A DNA stretch of 22,914 nt from a virus. Taxonomy: Duplodnaviria; Heunggongvirae; Uroviricota; Caudoviricetes. The notes beneath the pieces were generated by a model that was not told the origin of the DNA, did no database searches, and was given only the letters and a program-made list of their open reading frames with translations. Positions 1 through 20,474 of this stretch are shown piece after piece. Each line of letters starts with the position of its first letter. The first letter of the stretch is position 1. A program made the position numbers and the translations under genes. The stretch covers positions 1-22,914 of IMG/VR virus record IMGVR_UViG_2703718780_000024; one strand, written 5' to 3'.

Positions 1-1236
1 CTATGATAACCGCGCATTCAACATGGCTACCTGTTCGTCGTTCATGTCATCAATCCACATACCGTAAATTTCATACACCATCTGCGCAGTTTCATGCCCC
101 ATTTGGCTGGCTATAAATGCCGGGTTCGCTCCTGCCGTCAACAGCCAGCAGGCAAAAGTATGCCGCGTATGGTACGGATTACGGCGGCGAATACCAGCAC
201 GTTTTACTGCTGCATTCCACCTTGCCCCCAAACTGCTTACCGAGTAATAAGGTTTTTGTTTTCCGTTACACACCCTGGGCATGAAAACAAAATGCAGTTT
301 TTGCTTTTCGGTTCTGCCGTACTCCCGATGATAAAAGGTGATTTCGCTTTTGCGATGATGCCCGGTCAGTTTGTATTGCTCCTTCAGTGCTTCAAGAGCA
401 GGCTGCAGTAGTGTTACCGTCCGGATCCCCGCATTTGTTTTTGGGGGACCGAACATATCCAGTATCGTCAGGTTTCTTCTGACATTCACAACTCCCTTCT
501 CGAAATCCACATCCTCCCACGCCAGAGCAGCCAGTTCCCCGTGACGAAGCCCGGAGTATACGGCAAATTTCCACAAGTTCTGGCTCTGTCCTTTTTCACT
601 TTCCATTAATGCATTGAATTCTGTTTTAGATAACGGGTCAGGCTTTATTCTGTTTCTCTGTAATTTCTTTACTCCTTCAAATGGTTTGGTTGATATAAAT
701 CCCGACTGATACGCAAAACGTAACAACGAACAGAGCAGGGCGATATAGTTATCAACTGTGCGCACGGTTCTTCCTTTTTTGTTGGATCTTGGATTATCCA
801 GGTAAAGCGTTTCTCCATGCAGCAGTTCATTCCGGTAGTTTAAGATATCGCTATAACGAATATGCGATATCGGAGTACTCTCACAAATTATTATCCTGAG
901 TGTTTTTAATTGTGATTTCGTTTTCTTCATTGTGTTTGTTGTTAACTCTGTTTCTTTAATTTTTGTCCAGATATCACAAAGCTCCCCGAACGTTTTTATG
1001 ACCCTCGTTGTCACCATTTTTGCCCCAGTGCTGGACTGGGGAAAACGTCTTAAATACTCAAACTCACCGGAATTGATTTCATGAACTATCAACGCTCTTA
1101 AATTCCCGGCTTTTTTAATGTTACTGTTAGTAACCTCCCAGCCTTTCAATGTTTCCCGACATCGTTTTCCTCGAAACATGAACCAGATGCGAATGTATTT
1201 ACCTCGAATCTCGACACCTGTTGGTAATTTAGACAT
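1..1236 (-). CDS. intR: Phage integrase, tyrosine recombinase family (Rac IntR-like), 411 aa
   Basis: Full-length 411-aa ORF at the prophage edge, directly downstream of an excisionase-like gene. Product resembles phage integrases by recollection, and the length matches Rac IntR. Confidence 0.85.
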   Translation of the reverse strand: MSKLPTGVEIRGKYIRIWFMFRGKRCRETLKGWEVTNSNIKKAGNLRALIVHEINSGEFEYLRRFPQSSTGAKMVTTRVIKTFGELCDIWTKIKETELTTNTMKKTKSQLKTLRIIICESTPISHIRYSDILNYRNELLHGETLYLDNPRSNKKGRTVRTVDNYIALLCSLLRFAYQSGFISTKPFEGVKKLQRNRIKPDPLSKTEFNALMESEKGQSQNLWKFAVYSGLRHGELAALAWEDVDFEKGVVNVRRNLTILDMFGPPKTNAGIRTVTLLQPALEALKEQYKLTGHHRKSEITFYHREYGRTEKQKLHFVFMPRVCNGKQKPYYSVSSLGARWNAAVKRAGIRRRNPYHTRHTFACWLLTAGANPAFIASQMGHETAQMVYEIYGMWIDDMNDEQVAMLNARLS

Positions 1237-1237
1237 A

Positions 1238-1453
1238 TCATGAGTCTTTGATAAACTGATTTATCTTTGGATAGTTATACCAGATAATCCCTCGCTTACT
1301 GTCTGGCTTCCCTAAAGGAGATACTCGTTTGAAGTGGAAGCCTTCCACCCAACAGTTCTGGCGGTATGCTTCAATTTGTCTGGCCCCCAGACCAGTGCGA
1401 AGCATCAGGCCGTATTCAACCATCCACTCTTCATTAAAGATTACTTGTGCCAT
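1238..1453 (-). CDS. Excisionase-like small protein (Xis/YdaQ-like), 71 aa from the internal ATG
   Basis: Small basic ORF immediately upstream of int. Its stop TGA (1238-1240) sits one base from the int start. The six-frame ORF extends to 1477, but the first ATG gives 71 aa. Confidence 0.6.
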
Positions 1454-1552
1454 CGCATCACCTCTGGCAGGCGCCAATGTTAGACTTAAATTGACGCCCG
1501 ATGTTGATTATTAATAATCAGCTATGAAGTTTTAATTTGAATACAATGCAAT

Positions 1553-1741
1553 TCACGAGGACTGAAGTTTCTCGCAATTAAAATTTATCAGTTTTACTTT
1601 CTGCTCTCTGGAAACGCCTGCTTCTTTTTTACCTGAGAGCATTTTTTCGCATTCTGATTTCGTTAGTTTAGATTTTGAATATCTTGTCCAGTTAGTAGGA
1701 GTGCCACCTTCCTTTTCAATAGTGGCGGTAATTTTATACAT
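1553..1741 (-). CDS. Small prophage protein (YdaC-like), 62 aa
   Basis: ATG at 1741 is preceded by GGAGG at about 6 nt spacing. It lies in the leftward early operon between ralR and xis. Confidence 0.5.
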   Translation of the reverse strand: MYKITATIEKEGGTPTNWTRYSKSKLTKSECEKMLSGKKEAGVSREQKVKLINFNCEKLQSS

Positions 1742-1928
1742 GAACACCTCCATTATTATTTCCAGTGGTTCGTTTATTTCATCGTTCGAGTGCTTCTTTT
1801 TCACTTCCACCATAACCGGTTCGGGATTCGCATCCGTTACACTTCGCTCGGTAATATCCTGAAATGGCTTTCACCGTTACTGATGGACAACCACAAAATG
1901 GACATGGTTTAACATTGTCATATCTCAT
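1734..1928 (-). pseudogene. ralR: RalR/Lar-like restriction-alleviation gene with an in-frame TGA at 1779-1781; 49-aa product if translated from 1928
   Basis: Translation from ATG 1928 gives MRYDNVKPCPFCGCPSVTVKAISGYYRAKCNGCESRTGYGGSEKEALER, then TGA. The same frame continues NKRTTGNNNGGVHV to a TAA that overlaps the next gene start. The Cys-rich N-terminus matches RalR as I recall it. Confidence 0.55.
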
Positions 1929-1983
1929 AATTTTTCTCATAAAAATATTTCAAGTTGGCGGTGCATTACACCGCCAGGCTGAA

Positions 1984-2793
1984 TTATTCCTCTGAATTAT
2001 CGATTACACTGTATTCCCCGGTTAATACAGAGGAATCTGCAGGATCGATTGTCAGTGGTTCCTTTTCATCCATTGATACTGCACGCTGGATCTCAATTGA
2101 TACGGGCAGATATTTGAACAGGCGACGAATAGCCGTTTTCTTTGCCATTTCTTCCCAGTGAGTTACCCACGGCCCGTTATTACCAGCTTTACTCTGGCTG
2201 CGCACCAGCTCAATCTGTTTGCGCGTCATAACTTCAAACTGAGTACCTCCGTCTTTCAGTCTTGCGACAGCATAGACGTGGGTAACAGGGGCATCTTCGT
2301 TTTCTCCTGGGCGGTGTATTAACTTTTCATCAAGGCCAAATTCGAAATTAAACTCGTCACCTTCACGGACAACACGGGCTGACAAGCTGGCGATTTGACC
2401 TGAACGGCGAGCCAGATCAATCATGCCGCGATAGCCAATGATTAGCTGAACGTTTTTTTTACCGCTCTTTTCGTTTTTATTACCAAAAGGCAGTAAATAT
2501 GCATGACCGAGGGCGCTACCGGGCTCAAGTCCGAGCTGTGAACACTGTACGATTGCACTGACAAAACTCATAGTGTCACAGTTTCCTAACGCCGGAACTT
2601 TACGAATTTCTGTGGTGGCGATACGGATCATACGTTCAGCCGTCATATGGCGTGGAAGAGCTGCTGCCAGTTGCTCTTTCATTGATGGCTGGTTAATAAA
2701 ACTAATCACGTCGTTATTTTTAATTGCTGCTGGTGCACGGTTTCCCTGAGTTTTTTGCAGATCGGCTTTTGCGATTGGTGGTTGCTTAGTCAT
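1984..2793 (-). CDS. recT: RecT single-strand annealing recombinase, 269 aa
   Basis: Product from the internal ATG begins [29 protein letters not shown] and ends [10 protein letters not shown], near-identical to Rac RecT as recalled. It overlaps the recE stop. Confidence 0.92.
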
Positions 2794-5488
2794 TTGCATA
2801 TTCCTTAGCCCAGCGGGGCAGTGATAACGTCTTAATAGCTGGCCATTCATCGGTATTGAGGCAGTCAGCCAGGGTTCGCAGATTGCGGTGATATTCCAGC
2901 TGACCTGCCAGTTTTGCTTCTTCGCCCATCATGAAAATTTCAACCGGATAACGTCCGCATTCAATAGTTGTGCTGGCAACCAGAAAAACGAAAGTTGGCT
3001 GCACTCCAAACTGTGCTTCATAACCGTCACTGTAGAATGCATCCTGAACGTGATAGCGGTAGTCGTAATAAGCGGTTTTGAATCGTTGAATATCCGCCGT
3101 AGTTTTCACGTCCATGATCCAGTGAAATTCAGGGATAATTTTGTCCGGACGGCACCGACACAAAATTGCTGTTTCAGGATCTTCCCAGTAAATTGATGAT
3201 TCAGCGTGTCCGGCGCTTTCAACAAGCCATTGCCCCAGCGGCAAAGCCATAACGCTCTGATACATGAGTTCAATTTTCCGGCCTTCTTCGGCAGTGATAA
3301 CCGTTTTTCCTGTGCTTGCGCATTCCCTCAGAAACGCTTTCTCTTCTTCTTTTCCGGAGTTTGTCCGGCGGTTAAATTCAGGTGCTACGATAAAGCGGTT
3401 ACTGAATTCTTCCGGCTCAAGTACCCGGCAGTGGAAAGCGGTTCCTAAATCGAGCGTTTTTGTCTTTGTGGTGTCCACGGGGGCATTTTTACGCCACAAA
3501 TACAGTGCCGGAGTATCAGCAATGTCATCGAGCTGAGACTTACTGACACCGGGACCCGCGTGGTAATTCTCATTCGAAATTCCGTAATAAATACCTGGCT
3601 CTATGTCTTCTACGATTACGGGATCTGCGACTTCGCCAGTTTCATCACTGCAATCGCGATGCGGATCGCTGCCAGCATTCTCATTGTGCGGATGTTCAGC
3701 GCCTTCCATTTCCTCCGGATCATTTTCCTTAGCTTCAACCTGACTCTCTTCATCGAATGTTTCCTGGTATGTTGCGTCGCCCATCACCGCGCCACAATCA
3801 GGGCAGTTGCCGCCACCACTCTGACCGCAGGCGGTACAGACTTTTTCCTCTTCCTGTTGCGCTACTGGTTCGGATTGTTTCGTTTCTGGCTCGTCTTGTA
3901 ACGCATTTGGGCTGTTTTGTTCCGCTTTTTGGTCGTTCTGTTCCGTTTCTGACTGGTTCTGGTTCACAGAATCGCAGGTTTCAATCCCCTTCACCCATTT
4001 CGGATCATTCGGATCGCTAATCCCTTCAACAAATTCACCACGTGATGCAGCAAGCAATTTATCGGCGTCAGGCTGGCTGATATTGGCTGCCTGCATAATT
4101 TTGTTTACTTCGTCAGCGGTAACTTTTACCGGCTCCGGTTGTACGGAATCTTCAGCGGTATCCACATTTTGCGGTAAGTCCGTGTATGTTCCGTTTTTGC
4201 GGGCAAGATATTCTTCTTTCGTGATTTCAGCAGCCCCGGCAGCCAGCGCCTTGTCCAGACCAGAAAGTTTGTTTGCGCGACCGTATTTTTCGCCATCCTT
4301 GTCGGTGAAGAGGAAGTAGAACGGCCCCTCACGCTCTACAGATGGTTCGACTTCCACTTTGCATTCGGTTTTTTCGTTGTCCGGAATTGCCGTTTCCACT
4401 GCATCAGTTTCTGGTACTGGCGACGAGAGAGTATCAGTTGCGCTCTGATTTCTTCCTTCATCTTCAAACACGCCCTTTGTAGTCAGGTATTCAGTAATGT
4501 ATTTGTTCAGTGCCACAGGGTCTTTGTGAATGTCGATCGGACGTTCACGGACAAGGCCAAAAATAGTCTGGCGGCTGTAGCGAAGCGCATCAGGTTGTTT
4601 GCGCATTGATGCGGAGATGCGCTTCCAGTCTTCGCGATCTCTGGCGATAACTTCATTTTTAGCCCAGCGAAGGATGCTGCCGTCAATGTTTCCGGCATCC
4701 GCATCACCAGGCCAGAGATAGTAGGCCAGCTCCCTGTCCAGGGTTTTCCATGTCTGCTTGTATTCGCGATGAATGGCGGCAGTTACAGGAGGGATTTTTT
4801 CTGCTGGGTTTTCAGTGTGCTGTCGGTTGGCTTTGGCGCGGGCAAGATCAACAACAGACGTGTATTTTCCAGTCTCTTTGCGCTCTGCGTCCTGCCGTTT
4901 TTTCCAGTTACGTAATTCAGCCTGAATTTCGGGCCATTTGGTACCCGGCTTACATTTGTGTTTAACCCATCCGATAGCGAACAGTTTGCGTTCCGGATAC
5001 ATAGCGTTAATTTCAGGCGTTTTCATCAGTGCTTCAACGATATGCCCGTCAAAGGTAGCCACGTCTTCTTGCAGTAATTCCTGCGCGTCAATCGCCATAT
5101 CAACGGTGATGTTTTCACATGTACCGAACTTAACCAGGACCGCGTTCTGTACTTCAAGGGACAGCTTGTCAAAATTGACGTTAATAGGATCGGATTCTGG
5201 TTCGACCGGAATAAAGGAAGCGGATTCCTCATCCCAGCGGTTTTCCTGCATATATTCGGTATCCCAGGAGTCGATAGCAGGGCGGGGCATGCCGGGTTTA
5301 TCTTCGCAGACAAGAAATTTATAAGCGCAGTCCTGAGCAGCAGGATATTGCTCCAGGAATTGCCAGGTAAATTTGGCACGGGCGCGGCGTTCATCACCGG
5401 CTTCAATGGCAGTGGCTACAGCAACTGCGCCCTCTTCTTTTATTGCCTGTTCGTCCGGAATGGCGGCGCAAATAAAGACTTTACTCAT
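2786..5488 (-). CDS. recE: RecE exodeoxyribonuclease VIII, 900 aa
   Basis: Large ORF immediately upstream of and overlapping recT. The C-terminal region ([24 protein letters not shown] ... [10 protein letters not shown]) matches the RecE nuclease domain as recalled. Confidence 0.85.
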
Positions 5489-5581
5489 TTTGTTTTAACC
5501 TCATTACAGATTTAAGGGTGAACAAATCCCTGCCATTGCTGGCATATAAAAATGAAACCGGATATTAATTACGGTGCTGTT

Positions 5582-5773
5582 TTAAAGTCCTGCCGGTATT
5601 TCGTTATTATTAGTGTGAGTAGTTTTATCTACCGGATAACAGTTACCGGGAATTTTTTGTTCTGCTGCTGCAGCCATGCATTCTTTCATTGAACCGTATA
5701 AGCCAGTCACCAGCTCAAGAGATTCGCCGGAAACAAGATAAACTGTCAGAACGAGTGCAAATGTTGTATTCAT
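5582..5773 (-). CDS. Small protein with hydrophobic N-terminus (signal peptide or TM helix), 63 aa
   Basis: ATG overlaps the upstream gene stop (ATGA), with AAGGA about 9 nt upstream. The N-terminus MNTTFALVLTVYLVSG is hydrophobic. Confidence 0.45.
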   Translation of the reverse strand: MNTTFALVLTVYLVSGESLELVTGLYGSMKECMAAAAEQKIPGNCYPVDKTTHTNNNEIPAGL

Positions 5774-5958
5774 TGTTTATATCCTTTTTGCAGCAGGTCC
5801 AGACGAGCCAGCATTGAAGGAATGCATACTTCATTTAACAGGTCCTGCTCGAGTTTTCTCTGCTTAATGGCGTCTTCAATAAATGTTTTGTCTCCAGTGA
5901 TAACGCCAATTTCGAAACGAAGTTCAGACGTGCTGGCATTACATGATAACTTTTCCAT
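5770..5958 (-). CDS. Hypothetical early-left-operon protein, 62 aa from the internal ATG
   Basis: Internal ATG at 5958 is preceded by GAGGA at about 7 nt. The longer six-frame ORF to 6063 has no comparable RBS. Confidence 0.45.
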   Translation of the reverse strand: MEKLSCNASTSELRFEIGVITGDKTFIEDAIKQRKLEQDLLNEVCIPSMLARLDLLQKGYKQ

Positions 5959-6413
5959 TATCGCGTCCTCAACAATGAATTTTGTGATGCGGTGCCTAGT
6001 GCCTCCAGGTGACGTTAACCAGTTAACAATTAACGCCGGATACAGAGAATCCACCCATAACACTGTTTTTGGTTTTAACTGTTCCGCGTGCGCTGAGCCG
6101 CATTCACCGCATCACAAAATTCACTTTTAAAAAAGGGCGGCAGAGCAGTCACGGAGTAAAACTGATACCGCCAAATGTCACCAGAATATTGATAACAGAG
6201 GGCGTTGTAGCGGGGTTGTCACTTAAGCGTATGGTCAACCTGACAACCCGGTGTCCTCAACTGGGGAAGGAATAACCCCGCCATACTTACCGCCGCGCCA
6301 TTTCGCGGATTGCCACAACCGGAAGCGCACGTTCGAAGAAATCTAACGACAAGCCTTCTAAGGGAAAGAGCTTCGCCGTACGCTTTCGCGTTGTGTGCCT
6401 GCTTTTAACCACG

Positions 6414-6602
6414 TCAGGCGAGGTGGTTTCCGTCGTTCCCCAACGACAGGAAATCTGTATAATCTGGATATCCCCAACAACAGGAAGGTGTTTTATATGG
6501 TGGTTCAAAAGAATTGTTCAGGTACTGGTAAGCCTGCGGACAGGTCGGACATTCCGAATACCAGGAAACATATACCTGAGAAAAACATTCGACCAAAACC
6601 AT
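6414..6602 (-). CDS. Cys-rich small protein (possible zinc-binding, YdaE-like), 62 aa
   Basis: ATG at 6602 is preceded by AAGGAG at about 7 nt. The product has 8 Cys, including an ECPTCP motif and a CC pair. Confidence 0.5.
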   Translation of the reverse strand: MVLVECFSQVYVSWYSECPTCPQAYQYLNNSFEPPYKTPSCCWGYPDYTDFLSLGNDGNHLA

Positions 6603-6661
6603 CTCCAGCTCCTTCAGAGGAGAGGGGGAACAGCAACAATCAAACAAGCAGGTGATGATAT

Positions 6662-7108
6662 ATGGACCGGGATGATATTCTTGACAGGGTTTTATATGGT
6701 TATTTTCTTGAACAACTATTCTCTGTAGCGACTGGTCGTCTCGATAAACTTCTCTCAGTGGTGAGTATTATCCTCGGTTCATCTGTCATTGGTGGATTTA
6801 TTCCTGAAGTTTCTGGAGTTCTCATTGTTGTGATAGCAACCGTTCAAACGATTTACGGATTCGGACAAAAGTCAGGTAACGCAATGAGAAAATCCGCAGA
6901 ATATCTGCAGCTTTATGATGATGCAGAAAAATATTCCGATTCGGAATTGAAAATGCAGTTAAAGCTCCTGGAAAAAACAGATGATAATATTTGGTCGTCG
7001 CTTAAAGATATCGCAATCTTAAAAACCCAGATCAAAATAGGAATCTCCGTAGAACAACAAGAGAAACTGTCTGCAAAATCCAAATTGATGCGATTCCTTT
7101 GTGGTTAG
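6662..7108 (+). CDS. Membrane protein, possible superinfection-exclusion SieB-like, 148 aa
   Basis: It lies on the opposite strand inside the leftward early region, in the position sieB occupies in lambda and Rac. The N-terminal half is hydrophobic and the C-terminal half is charged. Confidence 0.4.
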   Translation: MDRDDILDRVLYGYFLEQLFSVATGRLDKLLSVVSIILGSSVIGGFIPEVSGVLIVVIATVQTIYGFGQKSGNAMRKSAEYLQLYDDAEKYSDSELKMQLKLLEKTDDNIWSSLKDIAILKTQIKIGISVEQQEKLSAKSKLMRFLCG

Positions 7109-7223
7109 GAATACCCAGATTGTTAAAGAGCATGCCGGATGCTTACCCGTGTCCGGCGAACGTATTCCACTTCGCCTGTGGAGAACTCTTTAATTACTAA
7201 CCTTCATCAGTCAGAGTTTCTTG

Positions 7224-7358
7224 CTAACCAGCGACGCGCGCCAGCTTCCGTTTTAAACGTTTTGCTTCTGGTAACGTCATCGCGGTGAACGTTCCATCCT
7301 GGTTGGGGAACACGCCGCACACCAGGGATTCGTTGTTGCCGAGGTCGATTTTTTGCAT
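7224..7358 (-). CDS. Small protein (YdaG-like), 44 aa
   Basis: ORF not in the supplied track (under 60 aa); translation MQKIDLGNNESLVCGVFPNQDGTFTAMTLPEAKRLKRKLARVAG. It sits directly downstream of the repressor-proximal small gene, and its length matches Rac YdaG. Confidence 0.45.
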   Translation of the reverse strand: MQKIDLGNNESLVCGVFPNQDGTFTAMTLPEAKRLKRKLARVAG

Positions 7359-18163: not shown

Positions 18164-18453
18164 TGGTGAATTTACGTAAAGCGGCTAAAGGCCAGATATG
18201 CCAGATCAGAATCCCTGGCTACTGCAATCACAATCCCGAAACCTCTGTGCTGGCGCATTACAGGCTGGCGGGAACGTGCGGAACAGCGATAAAGCCACAC
18301 GATATGCAGGCAGCGATTGCCTGTAACTCATGCCACGATTTAATCGACGGGAGAGTAAAAACCAGCGATTACACCAAAGAAGAATTGCGCCTGATGCATG
18401 CAGAAGGTGTTTTTCGCACACAAGAGATCTGGAGAAAGGACGGTTATTTATGA
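18163..18453 (+). CDS. ybcO: YbcO-like putative nuclease (DUF1364), 96 aa
   Basis: 96 aa with a conserved Cys/His pattern (CQIRIPGYCNHNPETSVLAH ... CNSCHD), closely resembling DLP12 YbcO as recalled. Confidence 0.75.
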   Translation: MVNLRKAAKGQICQIRIPGYCNHNPETSVLAHYRLAGTCGTAIKPHDMQAAIACNSCHDLIDGRVKTSDYTKEELRLMHAEGVFRTQEIWRKDGYL

Positions 18454-19004
18454 TTTACCCAACGAACACAGGAAAAAGCGGAGAGCACCTTCGTCTCACC
18501 ACGCTGGAAAGTGTCTGGATTCAGGGGAAACTACGTATGTGGGGGCGCTGGTCGTATATTGGCGGCGGTAAGACGGGAAATATGTTCAACCAGTTGCTGA
18601 CCTCTAAAAAGCTGACAAAAACGGCAATTAACGAGGCGCTCCGGAGGATGAAAAAAGCAGGTCTGGACAAACCTAAACTTGAGGCTTTTTTGCGGGATAT
18701 GATCAACGGCAAGCAAAAAAGCTGGCTGGTGCATTGTACCGATTCAGAGGCGTTAATAATCGACAGGGTTATTGGTGAAGTACTGGCAGGTTATCCCGGG
18801 CTGCTCAATGTTCTGAGTCAGCGTTATGTGGGGCGGGGGATGACTAAGCGCAAAATGGCTGAACTGCTGAATGATGCACATCCGGAATGGAGTTTAAGAA
18901 CCTGTGAAAGACGCATTGAGCATTGGCTAAAGGTGGCAGAATTTATTTTGTACAAACCAATGGTTATGGCTTTTGGTATAGAGAAAAAAGTTATTGCTTT
19001 TTGA
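18450..19004 (+). CDS. Putative late-gene antiterminator Q (non-lambda Q family), 184 aa
   Basis: The call rests on position: it is the last gene before the tRNA cluster, coupled by ATGA overlap to the YbcO-like gene. No zinc-finger motif is visible, so the family is uncertain. Confidence 0.45.
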   Translation: MIYPTNTGKSGEHLRLTTLESVWIQGKLRMWGRWSYIGGGKTGNMFNQLLTSKKLTKTAINEALRRMKKAGLDKPKLEAFLRDMINGKQKSWLVHCTDSEALIIDRVIGEVLAGYPGLLNVLSQRYVGRGMTKRKMAELLNDAHPEWSLRTCERRIEHWLKVAEFILYKPMVMAFGIEKKVIAF

Positions 19005-19080
19005 CGTAAAAACTGCTTCAATTCCGGTAAGCTTCGCAAAGCTGTATCGCGAGGCGAACCAAACGCATGAACTTTACCAG

Positions 19081-19105
19081 AACCCGCCATTGAGCGGGTT
19101 TTTTA
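19081..19105 (+). terminator. Rho-independent terminator (possible tR'-like)
   Basis: Stem CCCGC / GCGGG with loop CATTGA, followed by TTTTTT. Confidence 0.55.
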
Positions 19106-19143
19106 TTGCGGAATTAATTACGGACCGTTATTATTCTGCTCCC

Positions 19144-19219
19144 GGCCCTTTAGCTCAGTGGTGAGAGCGAGCGACTCATAATCGCCAGGTCGCTGGTTCA
19201 AATCCAGCAAGGGCCACCA
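19144..19219 (+). tRNA. tRNA with CAU anticodon, most likely tRNA-Ile2 (ileX/ileZ-like); tRNA-Met not excluded
   Basis: 76-nt cloverleaf with acceptor GGCCCTT/AAGGGCC, T-loop TTCAAAT, anticodon loop CTCATAA and encoded CCA. It closely resembles E. coli ileX as recalled. Confidence 0.85.
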
Positions 19220-19319
19220 TCACAAACCGCCATTAGCTTATCAGGAAGAGCAGACGACACCATAACAGGGTTGTTGGTGCGGGGGCGGGTCCCCGATGGC
19301 GGTCCATTATCGGTATTCT

Positions 19320-19396
19320 GCGTTGTTAGCTCAGCCGGACAGAGCAATTGCCTTCTAAGCAATCGGTCAGTGGTTCGACTCCACTACAACGCGCCA
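19320..19396 (+). tRNA. tRNA-Arg (anticodon UCU)
   Basis: 77-nt cloverleaf with acceptor GCGTTGT/ACAACGC, anticodon loop CTTCTAA, T-loop TTCGACT and encoded CCA. Confidence 0.85.
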
Positions 19397-19409
19397 CACT
19401 TATTTTCCA

Positions 19410-19433
19410 GGCTCGCTTCGGCGGGCCTTTTTT
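19410..19433 (+). terminator. Rho-independent terminator after the tRNA cluster
   Basis: Stem GGCTCGC / GCGGGCC with loop TTCG, followed by TTTTTT. Confidence 0.6.
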
Positions 19434-19565
19434 GTATCTGCGCCACGCCCGGCGCATATCAACCACAGAGCCTTTCGGGGGTGAGCTTACGGAGTGGTCA
19501 GTGTGACTTTCTCTGTGGGCAGATCGCTCCCGGGCGTTGGCTCACCCACCCAAAGGAACGTCACG

Positions 19566-19997
19566 ATGTTTGGAATCTTCAAAAAGAAAACCCGCAGAGC
19601 GGCAGCGGAAATTAAAAAGTTTGAGAAACGCGATCTGGCACAGGCGGTGATTAACGCTGCATACCTGGTGGCCTATGCAGATGGTGAATGCGAGGCATCC
19701 GAGAAAGCGAAGATCGAACAGGTCTTACGTAATCAGCCTGCGTTGTCTGCGTTTACCTCGGAAATTAATGCGATTAGCGCAACTATTATCGGTCAGCTGG
19801 ATACCAATTTTAAAATTGGTCGTCGTGCCGCGTTACGCGAGATTGAGGATGTGAAACACGATACGCGTGAAGCGGAAGATGTGCTGGATGTGGCGGTGGC
19901 CATTGCGGAGGCAGACGGCGAAATTGAGCCGGAAGAGCGCAAGGTGCTGGAAGAGATTGCCGGTGTTCTGGGTCTTCGTCTGGAGAATCACCTGTGA
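19566..19997 (+). CDS. TerB-like domain protein, 143 aa from ATG 19566
   Basis: Two ADGE-containing segments (AYADGECEASEKAKIEQVL and AEADGEIEPEERKVLEEIAGVLGL) typical of the TerB fold. AAGGA RBS. Confidence 0.55.
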   Translation: MFGIFKKKTRRAAAEIKKFEKRDLAQAVINAAYLVAYADGECEASEKAKIEQVLRNQPALSAFTSEINAISATIIGQLDTNFKIGRRAALREIEDVKHDTREAEDVLDVAVAIAEADGEIEPEERKVLEEIAGVLGLRLENHL

Positions 19998-20161
19998 CGG
20001 TAAAACTGCGCCTGGCTGTGGCTGCACTCCTGCTGTTTCTGGTGGTGATGGTGGATTTCACCAGCAGAATCATGTCGGTGCTGGCGGATGGGGTGCTGGT
20101 CTGCGGCATTGTGGTATTGCTGTGGCCGGTGATAAAAAGAAACAGCCTGCATAATGCTTGA
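19994..20161 (+). CDS. Possible small membrane protein, 55 aa, GTG start overlapping the TerB-like stop
   Basis: Translation VTVKLRLAVAALLLFLVVMVDFTSRIMSVLADGVLVCGIVVLLWPVIKRNSLHNA, followed by a T-run. No ATG start. Confidence 0.3.
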   Translation: MTVKLRLAVAALLLFLVVMVDFTSRIMSVLADGVLVCGIVVLLWPVIKRNSLHNA

Positions 20162-20474
20162 TTTTTTTGTTTGCTGTTTATTAAAAACACTTCTGCATGG
20201 TGAATCCCCCTGTGCGGAGGGGCGATCAGCAACCAGGTATATGGGATAATCGCGGATTCAGGTGCTGATACTGAATTCACCGGGAGGCACCCGGCACCAT
20301 GCTTTGCCACAAAAGTGTTGTTTCTGTTTTTCTCAAACTATCATCGTTATCCCTTTATTTCCGGCTGCGCATGGCGTGGCCTTTTTTTACGACCAGCCAC
20401 TGGCAGATGGCCATCCTGTAATTTGATTCCGGTTCCGGCTTTTTAACTCTGTTCCTGTACACGGGAGAAATTCG

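Follow-up and report, generated by a model that had tools for sequence, protein, structure and literature searches.

The two tRNA genes in the window, the whole 22,914-nt stretch of DNA analysed here (IMG/VR record IMGVR_UViG_2703718780_000024), are the conserved ileZ-(argN)-argO cassette of lambdoid (Stx-type) Escherichia prophages, which probably acts as a general rare-tRNA supplement for the whole prophage. The cassette itself is known, ordinary and already annotated, and it is found in lambda-like prophages of over half of the sequenced E. coli genomes. Calling the two genes is therefore a correct but routine annotation, and the window belongs to a lambdoid prophage of the kind typical of EHEC, with the standard rare-codon tRNA cassette in its late regulatory region. 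The "missing" third tRNA of this cassette is a widespread decayed relic that genome annotation leaves blank.

Identity of the two tRNA genes

In the 22.9-kb window, ARAGORN called two tRNA genes in all, with the anticodons CAT and TCT. The first gene (19144..19219, +) scored 72.5 bits (E 2e-14) and the second (19320..19396, +) 67.3 bits (E 6e-13) against Rfam RF00005. We took a cloverleaf scoring above the RF00005 gathering score of 29 as the mark of a tRNA; both genes lie well above this value, and their scores exclude chance for both calls. On identical DNA in RefSeq genomes, PGAP labels the two genes tRNA-Ile and tRNA-Arg. A first-pass annotation, made from the letters of the sequence, had placed an ileX-type CAU tRNA and a tRNA-Arg(UCU) here, and both the positions and the two assignments proved exact.

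The CAU tRNA is identical over its whole length (76/76) to ileZ of the Stx2a phage AP012536 and closely resembles the K-12 genes ileY (70/76) and ileX (68/76). Identity to the tRNA-Met genes is 54/78 for the elongator metT/metU and 49/78 for the initiator metV. Both the alignment and the PGAP isotype place the body of this tRNA closer to tRNA-Ile2 than to elongator or initiator tRNA-Met. It carries U12-A23, C29-G41, A37, A38 and A73, which we take to be identity elements for IleRS. Its acceptor stem is GGCCCTT/AAGGGCC and includes C4-G69 and C5-G68, the pairs needed by E. coli TilS (PMC1635315, PMC11947777). Initiator tRNAs are distinguished by a C1xA72 mismatch, A11-U24 and three G-C pairs closing the anticodon stem (PMC1635315); these hallmarks are missing, and the CAU tRNA has G1-C72, C11-G24 and A31-U39 instead. 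It is of the tRNA-Ile2 type and, judging by its sequence, retains the determinants of E. coli TilS and IleRS. A CAU tRNA that is left unmodified is charged with Met and reads AUG (PMC1635315).

The anticodon stem of the window ileZ is not host-like. Where ileX and ileY have G27.U43, the window gene has an A27xC43 mismatch, which cmscan flags as non-canonical and which is included in the 6 differences between ileZ and K-12 ileY. Changes in this stem can hamper the action of E. coli TilS (PMC11947777). The same mismatch is present in ileZ of the Stx2a phage and in every copy listed with the pattern of the ileZ 3' half, a pattern that itself spans both positions.

The UCU tRNA matches argO of the Stx2a phage at 74/77 positions and host argU at 53/77 (69%). 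Being so distant from argU, it was not recently copied from the host gene. Arginylation by ArgRS depends on A20, C35 and an A or G discriminator at position 73. In the UCU tRNA, the D loop AGCCGGACA supplies A20, C35 is in place, and the discriminator is G73, as in argU. All stem pairs of the window argO (21/21) are Watson-Crick, and pair 51-65 shows a compensatory double change from C-G to G-C relative to the commonest allele. The predicted codons of this tRNA are AGA and, less well, AGG. MFE folding gave no cloverleaves for the two tRNAs and was uninformative, and a covariance-model alignment was used instead.

The K-12 genes ileX and ileY (tRNA-Ile2, k2C-AU) and argU have the same anticodons as the window genes and identical anticodon loops. 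ileX and ileY have C4-G69, C5-G68, U12-A23, C29-G41 and A73 in common with the window ileZ, and argU has A20, C35 and G73 in common with argO. Unlike these K-12 genes, the window-type ileZ and argO are prophage-borne and multi-copy.

A decayed third tRNA gene in the spacer

Alignment with the Stx2a phage and with phage Evi identified the 100-nt spacer between the two genes (19220-19319) as the homologue of the cassette's middle tRNA, which is argN (UCG) in the Stx2a phage and tRNA-Lys(UUU) in phage Evi. The alignments delimit an unannotated, decayed tRNA of 81 nt in the argN slot (19226..19306, +), with an identity of 59/82 to Stx2a argN and 61/83 to the tRNA-Lys(UUU) of phage Evi. Its acceptor stem, D arm and T stem can still be recognised, while the anticodon arm has undergone rearrangement and the T loop has GGGCGGGTC in place of GGTTCGAGC. 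The relic was called neither by Rfam at E<=10 nor by ARAGORN, whether its thresholds were lowered to 60% (-ps60) or introns were allowed. With no 7-nt anticodon loop, no T-loop consensus and no call by any of these tools, we rejected it as a functional tRNA.

The relic folds in a cloverleaf-like manner (z -2.3), and its poly-G tract comprises 5, 6 or 12 G, differing between loci. Its diversity within its own class (0.062) lies between that of argO (0.025) and that of the spacers (0.12), and at this diversity a conserved function other than that of a tRNA was rejected as unsupported. At a coverage of at least 80%, the relic occurs in 1725 of the 5426 complete genomes of E. coli, where it lies under no annotated feature.

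The first-pass annotation had set the two tRNAs of this prophage against the three typical of Stx phages. This stands for the callable genes (CAT, TCG and TCT in the Stx2a phage), but it overlooked the decayed third gene: the window cassette does not comprise three intact tRNA genes, as its middle gene is a relic. The two-tRNA form with the relic is a common variant of the ileZ-argN-argO cassette family.

Cassette surroundings and transcription signals

The window covers the left arm of an EHEC lambdoid prophage that is integrated beside ttcA, which is the Rac site. It is 100% identical to the complete EHEC genomes of O157:H7 MB41-1, strain 25-07338, O103:H2 PV16-126 and 2013C-4991. Its genes run in the order intR-xisR-ralR-recT-recE-like-dicB, followed by immunity and replication genes, an AT-rich island, nin-type genes and a Q-like gene. 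Beyond the Q-like gene lie the tRNAs, TerB, DUF3927 and a nanS-p-like esterase, with lysis and structural genes past the window end. A tRNA-derived att site was considered and rejected, because both tRNA genes are full length and are located in the late region, ~18 kb from the integrase end.

The gene directly upstream of the cassette (18450..19004, +; a CDS in PGAP) is a Q-like late antiterminator of the DUF1133 family, with matches to PF06576 (351 bits) and PF06530 Phage_antitermQ (33.7 bits, cutoff 26). It is followed by a terminator-like hairpin with a U tract (19079..19104, +; -13.1 kcal/mol, z -2.9), in which a CCCGC/GCGGG stem precedes UUUUUU; from its position after Q, we infer that this hairpin acts as tR'. 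A candidate sigma-70 promoter of the cassette (19106..19134, +) consists of a -35 element TTGCGG (19106-19111), a 17-nt spacer and a -10 element TATTAT (19129-19134). Nine GC-rich nucleotides separate the -10 element from the first base of the tRNA, and the predicted start is near 19141. In a consensus promoter and terminator scan of the window, the candidate promoter fell below the threshold (-35 matches 3/6) and the hairpin at 19079-19104 was not listed. The promoter assignment is based on conservation, the TTG..17..TATTAT element upstream of ileZ being kept in at least five unrelated upstream contexts, and that of the hairpin on folding. For the homologous Stx2 phage tRNAs, a transcription start site (TSS)/promoter was reported by dRNA-seq in uninduced cultures of Sakai (PMC7547250).

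An intrinsic terminator closes the cassette (19409..19434, +). It was found both by the terminator scan and by folding, has an 8-bp stem with 6 GC pairs followed by TTTTTT (-14.6 kcal/mol, z -3.9), and is also present 3' of the cassette in the Stx2a phage and in phage Evi. Taken from the sequence, the cassette would have its own promoter, active in lysogens, and after induction it would be transcribed by the Q-modified polymerase. The cargo slot downstream (19566..20161, +) holds TerB-family and DUF3927 genes (Pfam PF05099, PF13064), and Stx phages place stxAB in the corresponding slot. The cassette is thus found after Q and a terminator and before the cargo slot, nanS-p and the lysis genes, with ileZ first, argO last and conserved flanks.

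The ileZ-argN-argO cassette of the Stx2-converting phage (Stx2a_1447, AP012536), which we take to be of the 933W/Sp5 type, has its genes in the same order, within the layout ileZ-argN-argO-stx2AB-nanS-p. The flanks of the two cassettes align from ~38 nt upstream, with the promoter-like element included, through the downstream terminator, and both cassettes lie at the same place, with Q on the upstream side and the cargo slot and nanS-p on the downstream side. They differ in the middle gene, which is argN (UCG) in Stx2a_1447 and the 81-nt relic in the window, and in the cargo slot, which contains stx2AB in Stx2a_1447 and TerB/DUF3927 in the window. They differ also in the gene directly before the cassette, a DNA methylase gene in Stx2a_1447 and the DUF1133-family Q in the window.

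Distribution and sequence constraint

Scanning IMG/VR with the exact ileZ 3' half returned at least 120 loci, 112 of them evaluable. Among the matches listed, CAU+UCG+UCU was the commonest array of the cassette family (55/112 evaluable loci). CAU+UCU was found in 28/112 of the evaluable loci among the matches listed, and 25 of these 28 have the window-type relic; CAU+Lys+Thr+Gly occurred in 13 loci, besides a few other arrays. Other relics at the IMG/VR loci listed derive independently from Lys-type and argN-type genes. In several prophages, ileZ is followed by Lys(UUU)+Thr(UGU)+Gly(UCC) or by Lys(UUU)+Arg(UCU) (loci L016, L050-L052, L067 and L096, among others, and phage Evi, L004 2032-2273). 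As different tRNAs stand behind ileZ in other lambdoid prophages, the slots after ileZ appear to be exchangeable.

In complete E. coli genomes, the ileZ type is present in 3057/5426, at most 12 times per genome, and the argO type in 2367/5426, at most 11 times; for both, the median copy number among carriers is 1. The EHEC genomes that match the window contain several paralogous cassettes, 7 to 12 places in each genome giving a match. The best ileZ match is at least 99% identical in 2776 of 3068 records. Among species-representative genomes, the exact ileZ 3' half occurred only in Escherichia and Shigella, plus two MAG contigs. These two, named 'Proteobacteria bacterium' (L135) and 'uncultured Collinsella sp.' (L140), are probably contaminating or misbinned Escherichia prophage contigs.

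Diversity was calculated from 86 aligned cassettes, at loci selected because they match the ileZ 3' half exactly. Per site it amounted to 0.005 in the unbiased 5' part of ileZ, 0.022 in argO, 0.205 in the middle slot, 0.18-0.23 in the spacers and 0.46-0.49 in the outer flanks. ileZ and argO are 10 to 40 times less variable than the flanking spacers and the relic, and the middle slot is as variable as the intergenic spacers. Among the matches listed, 21/21 stem pairs are kept in 88 of 93 argO copies, and all pairs in 42 of 63 UCG copies. Together, the low diversity and the kept stem pairs argue that ileZ and argO are under purifying selection and that the middle slot is not. Constraint therefore differs by slot, being strongest in ileZ, weaker in argO and absent from the middle.

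Codon usage of the prophage and its AT-rich island

The AT-rich island (13565..17064, GC 31-38%) encodes, according to Pfam, a C5 DNA methyltransferase (+), a Methyltransf_35 protein (-) and a GHKL ATPase (-). It is present in 173/5426 genomes, EDL933 included, in all cases as a single copy and with at least 99% identity. A PADLOC scan of the island proteins gave generic methyltransferase matches only, and none for the Methyltransf_35 protein and the GHKL ATPase. The island may be an uncharacterised modification or defence module.

Codons were counted using PGAP gene coordinates. A set of 83 K-12 core genes (27,935 codons) served as the host sample, and the late genes were counted in the same prophage of O157:H7 MB41-1 (L001 24469-42042). 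Per 1000 codons, ATA, AGA and AGG reach 33.2, 19.6 and 6.8 in the island, 8.7, 7.1 and 5.7 in the rest of the window, and 5.9, 7.0 and 4.8 in the lysis and structural (late) genes, compared with 2.5, 0.8 and 0.5 in the host core genes. These counts bear out two statements of the first-pass annotation, that ATA and AGA are rare in E. coli and that the island genes are rich in rare codons. ATA, AGA and AGG are all enriched in the island over the host core genes, ATA 13-fold (Fisher p 9e-27) and AGA 25-fold (p 1e-20), and with 48 to 64 ATA+AGA per 1000 codons the island genes have the highest density in the window. ATA makes up 38% of the Ile codons of the island, and AGA and AGG 40% and 14% of its Arg codons, against a genome-wide expectation of 7%, 4% and 2%, respectively (PMC2408971). 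Relative to the host, enrichment extends to the other prophage genes, intR and the late genes among them, at about 9-fold for AGA and 2.4 to 3.6-fold for ATA.

The share of ATA among the Ile codons of the island (0.38) equals the value predicted from third-position composition (0.39). Accordingly, the ratio of observed to expected ATA is 0.98 in the island, about 0.5 in the prophage backbone and 0.24 in the host. Since its use of ATA is what base composition leads one to expect, the island gives no sign of a tRNA-tuned design; AT-richer foreign DNA shows such codon enrichment without any tRNA-driven selection. The island looks like un-ameliorated foreign DNA, with a rare-codon load that is compositional and shows no tuning to tRNAs. 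The match between tRNAs and codons is also loose in the late genes. Their most over-used rare Arg codon is CGG (17.0 per 1000, host 4.4; p 8e-18). CGG, like CGA, could be read by a UCG tRNA, the very one that has decayed in the window prophage.

With 9 ATA, 9 AGA and 4 AGG in 411 codons, intR (1-1236, -) ranks next after the island in its richness in rare codons, and the synthesis of its product, Int, may be controlled by rare-tRNA supply.

Role of the cassette

How the cassette might work as a general supplement can be outlined from its signals and its codon match. In lysogens it would be transcribed from its own promoter, and after induction far more strongly from PR', by read-through of the Q-modified RNA polymerase. 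The tRNAs would then be freed by RNase P and by processing of their 3' ends. TilS would lysidinylate C34 of ileZ, leading to charging with Ile and reading of AUA, and ArgRS would charge the UCU tRNA for reading of AGA (and AGG). Both tRNAs would top up the scarcest tRNAs of the host, for which K-12 has ileX and ileY, and argU, as its only sources. The beneficiary would be the phage genome, in which ATA is 2.4 to 13 times and AGA 9 to 25 times as frequent as in the host core genes. The supplement would thus serve the integrase, the replication and nin genes, the late genes and any AT-rich cargo, with no particular tie to the island. Rare-tRNA supply is known to limit the expression of rare-codon genes in E. 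coli (PMC2408971). Counting against a role as a supplement, the cassette is redundant with host ileX, ileY and argU and with its paralogous cassettes. A full-text literature search returned nothing useful on ileZ/argN/argO or on Stx-phage tRNAs and rare codons, and a comparative paper on pR' makes no mention of tRNAs.

The same logic underlies helper plasmids of the pACYC-RIPL/CodonPlus type (argU, ileY, leuW, proL), which provide extra Ile(AUA) and Arg(AGA/AGG) tRNAs for foreign genes rich in rare codons, and the effects of a rare-codon helper plasmid in E. coli are documented (PMC2408971). In contrast to these plasmids, the window cassette is natural, phage-borne and part of a late operon, and has two working tRNAs only. 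Like the tRNA clusters of T4 and T5, the window tRNAs match codons that are used more by the phage than by its host, as in the codon-compensation model for phage tRNAs (Bailly-Bechet et al. 2007, as cited in PMC7946995). Unlike the virulent phages T4 and T5, the window phage is temperate, with 2 to 4 tRNAs in a fixed late-regulatory position, and a copy of the cassette is probably active in the lysogen as well.

The first-pass annotation had proposed that the tRNAs are carried specifically to express the AT-rich island of the prophage (methyltransferase, GHKL ATPase, O-methyltransferase). The island does have the highest density of ATA and AGA in the window, and it is linked to the cassette in one prophage lineage, as the island is found in 173 genomes and the Q-tRNA segment, at an identity of 99% or more, in 173 records. 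However, the cassette is present in 3057 genomes against the 173 with the island, a difference in distribution that already largely refutes the proposal. Stx2 phages without the island carry an identical ileZ, the rest of the prophage is enriched in the same codons, and the island uses ATA at the level expected from its composition. Furthermore, two of the three island genes are on the opposite strand, at a distance of 2 kb upstream and not within the late operon. A service to the island alone is therefore improbable. That the host is the main beneficiary is unlikely too, although such lysogenic conversion would be compatible with a general supplement: constitutive cassettes would raise tRNA-Ile2 and tRNA-Arg(UCU) and aid acquired AT-rich genes. 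In keeping with this, the promoter element of the cassette is conserved, with a TSS in uninduced Sakai cultures (PMC7547250), genomes may have as many as 12 ileZ and 11 argO copies, and extra copies of argU and ileY alter fimbrial expression, Hha toxicity and biofilm formation in E. coli (PMC2408971). Yet the typical carrier, by the median, has a single copy.

Phage tRNAs could also replace host tRNAs that anticodon nucleases or colicins have cut, or could serve as decoys for them, as has been shown for some T5 tRNAs. tRNA-Arg is cleaved by colicin D, and tRNA-Lys is a known nuclease target. The strong divergence of the argO body from host argU (53/77) would suit this role, as would the Lys(UUU), Thr and Gly tRNAs that related prophages carry in the same slot. 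On the other hand, the anticodon loops are the same as in host ileX/ileY (CUCAUAA) and argU (CUUCUAA), we know of no nuclease that targets tRNA-Ile2, and tRNAs for the rarest codons in a genome rich in these codons are more simply explained by supply, so that counter-defence seems very unlikely. Neutral passengers, hitch-hiking tRNA remnants without a current function that decay like the middle one, are the least likely reading of all. In its favour, the middle tRNA has been lost to decay both here and, in separate events, in other lineages, and the cassette is highly redundant within genomes; against it, the variation of ileZ and argO is 10 to 40 times lower than that of the relic and the neighbouring spacers, argO shows a compensatory stem change, and ileZ is nearly identical across most records. 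None of these four alternatives is favoured by the evidence.

Returning to the cassette as a rare-tRNA supplement, it is tempting to speculate, though we consider it doubtful, that it forms a self-contained constitutive unit, with a promoter and a terminator of its own around two constrained tRNAs, of which up to a dozen copies may raise the tRNA-Ile2 and tRNA-Arg(UCU) pools in EHEC. If this were true, prophage load would help to determine how well un-ameliorated AT-rich foreign genes are expressed, among them those of defence islands, integrases, effectors and adhesins. Prophage tRNA dosage would then matter for virulence-gene expression in EHEC.

Other features of the prophage

DUF3927 and the nanS-p-like esterase gene are separated by an sRNA of the STnc100 family (20166-20338, +; 104.7 bits), which is followed by an intrinsic terminator (20363-20381). 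PGAP left this sRNA unannotated and drew a frameshifted pseudo-CDS nearby. Towards the integrase end, the RalA antitoxin sRNA (225 bits) and the ralR toxin gene (1557-1735, +, and 1779-1928, -) form a type I toxin-antitoxin pair of the Rac type, and the DicF sRNA (77 bits) adjoins dicB (6135-6186, -, and 5770-5958, -) in a cell-division inhibition module. The recE-like nuclease gene is intact in the window (2786-5488) and is split by IS1203 in O157:H7 MB41-1 (L001 5722-6935). The window DNA accordingly stems from a genome that lacks this insertion, strain 25-07338 being an example. In the early-right region, PGAP annotates a frameshifted DUF4014 pseudogene (12155-12372).
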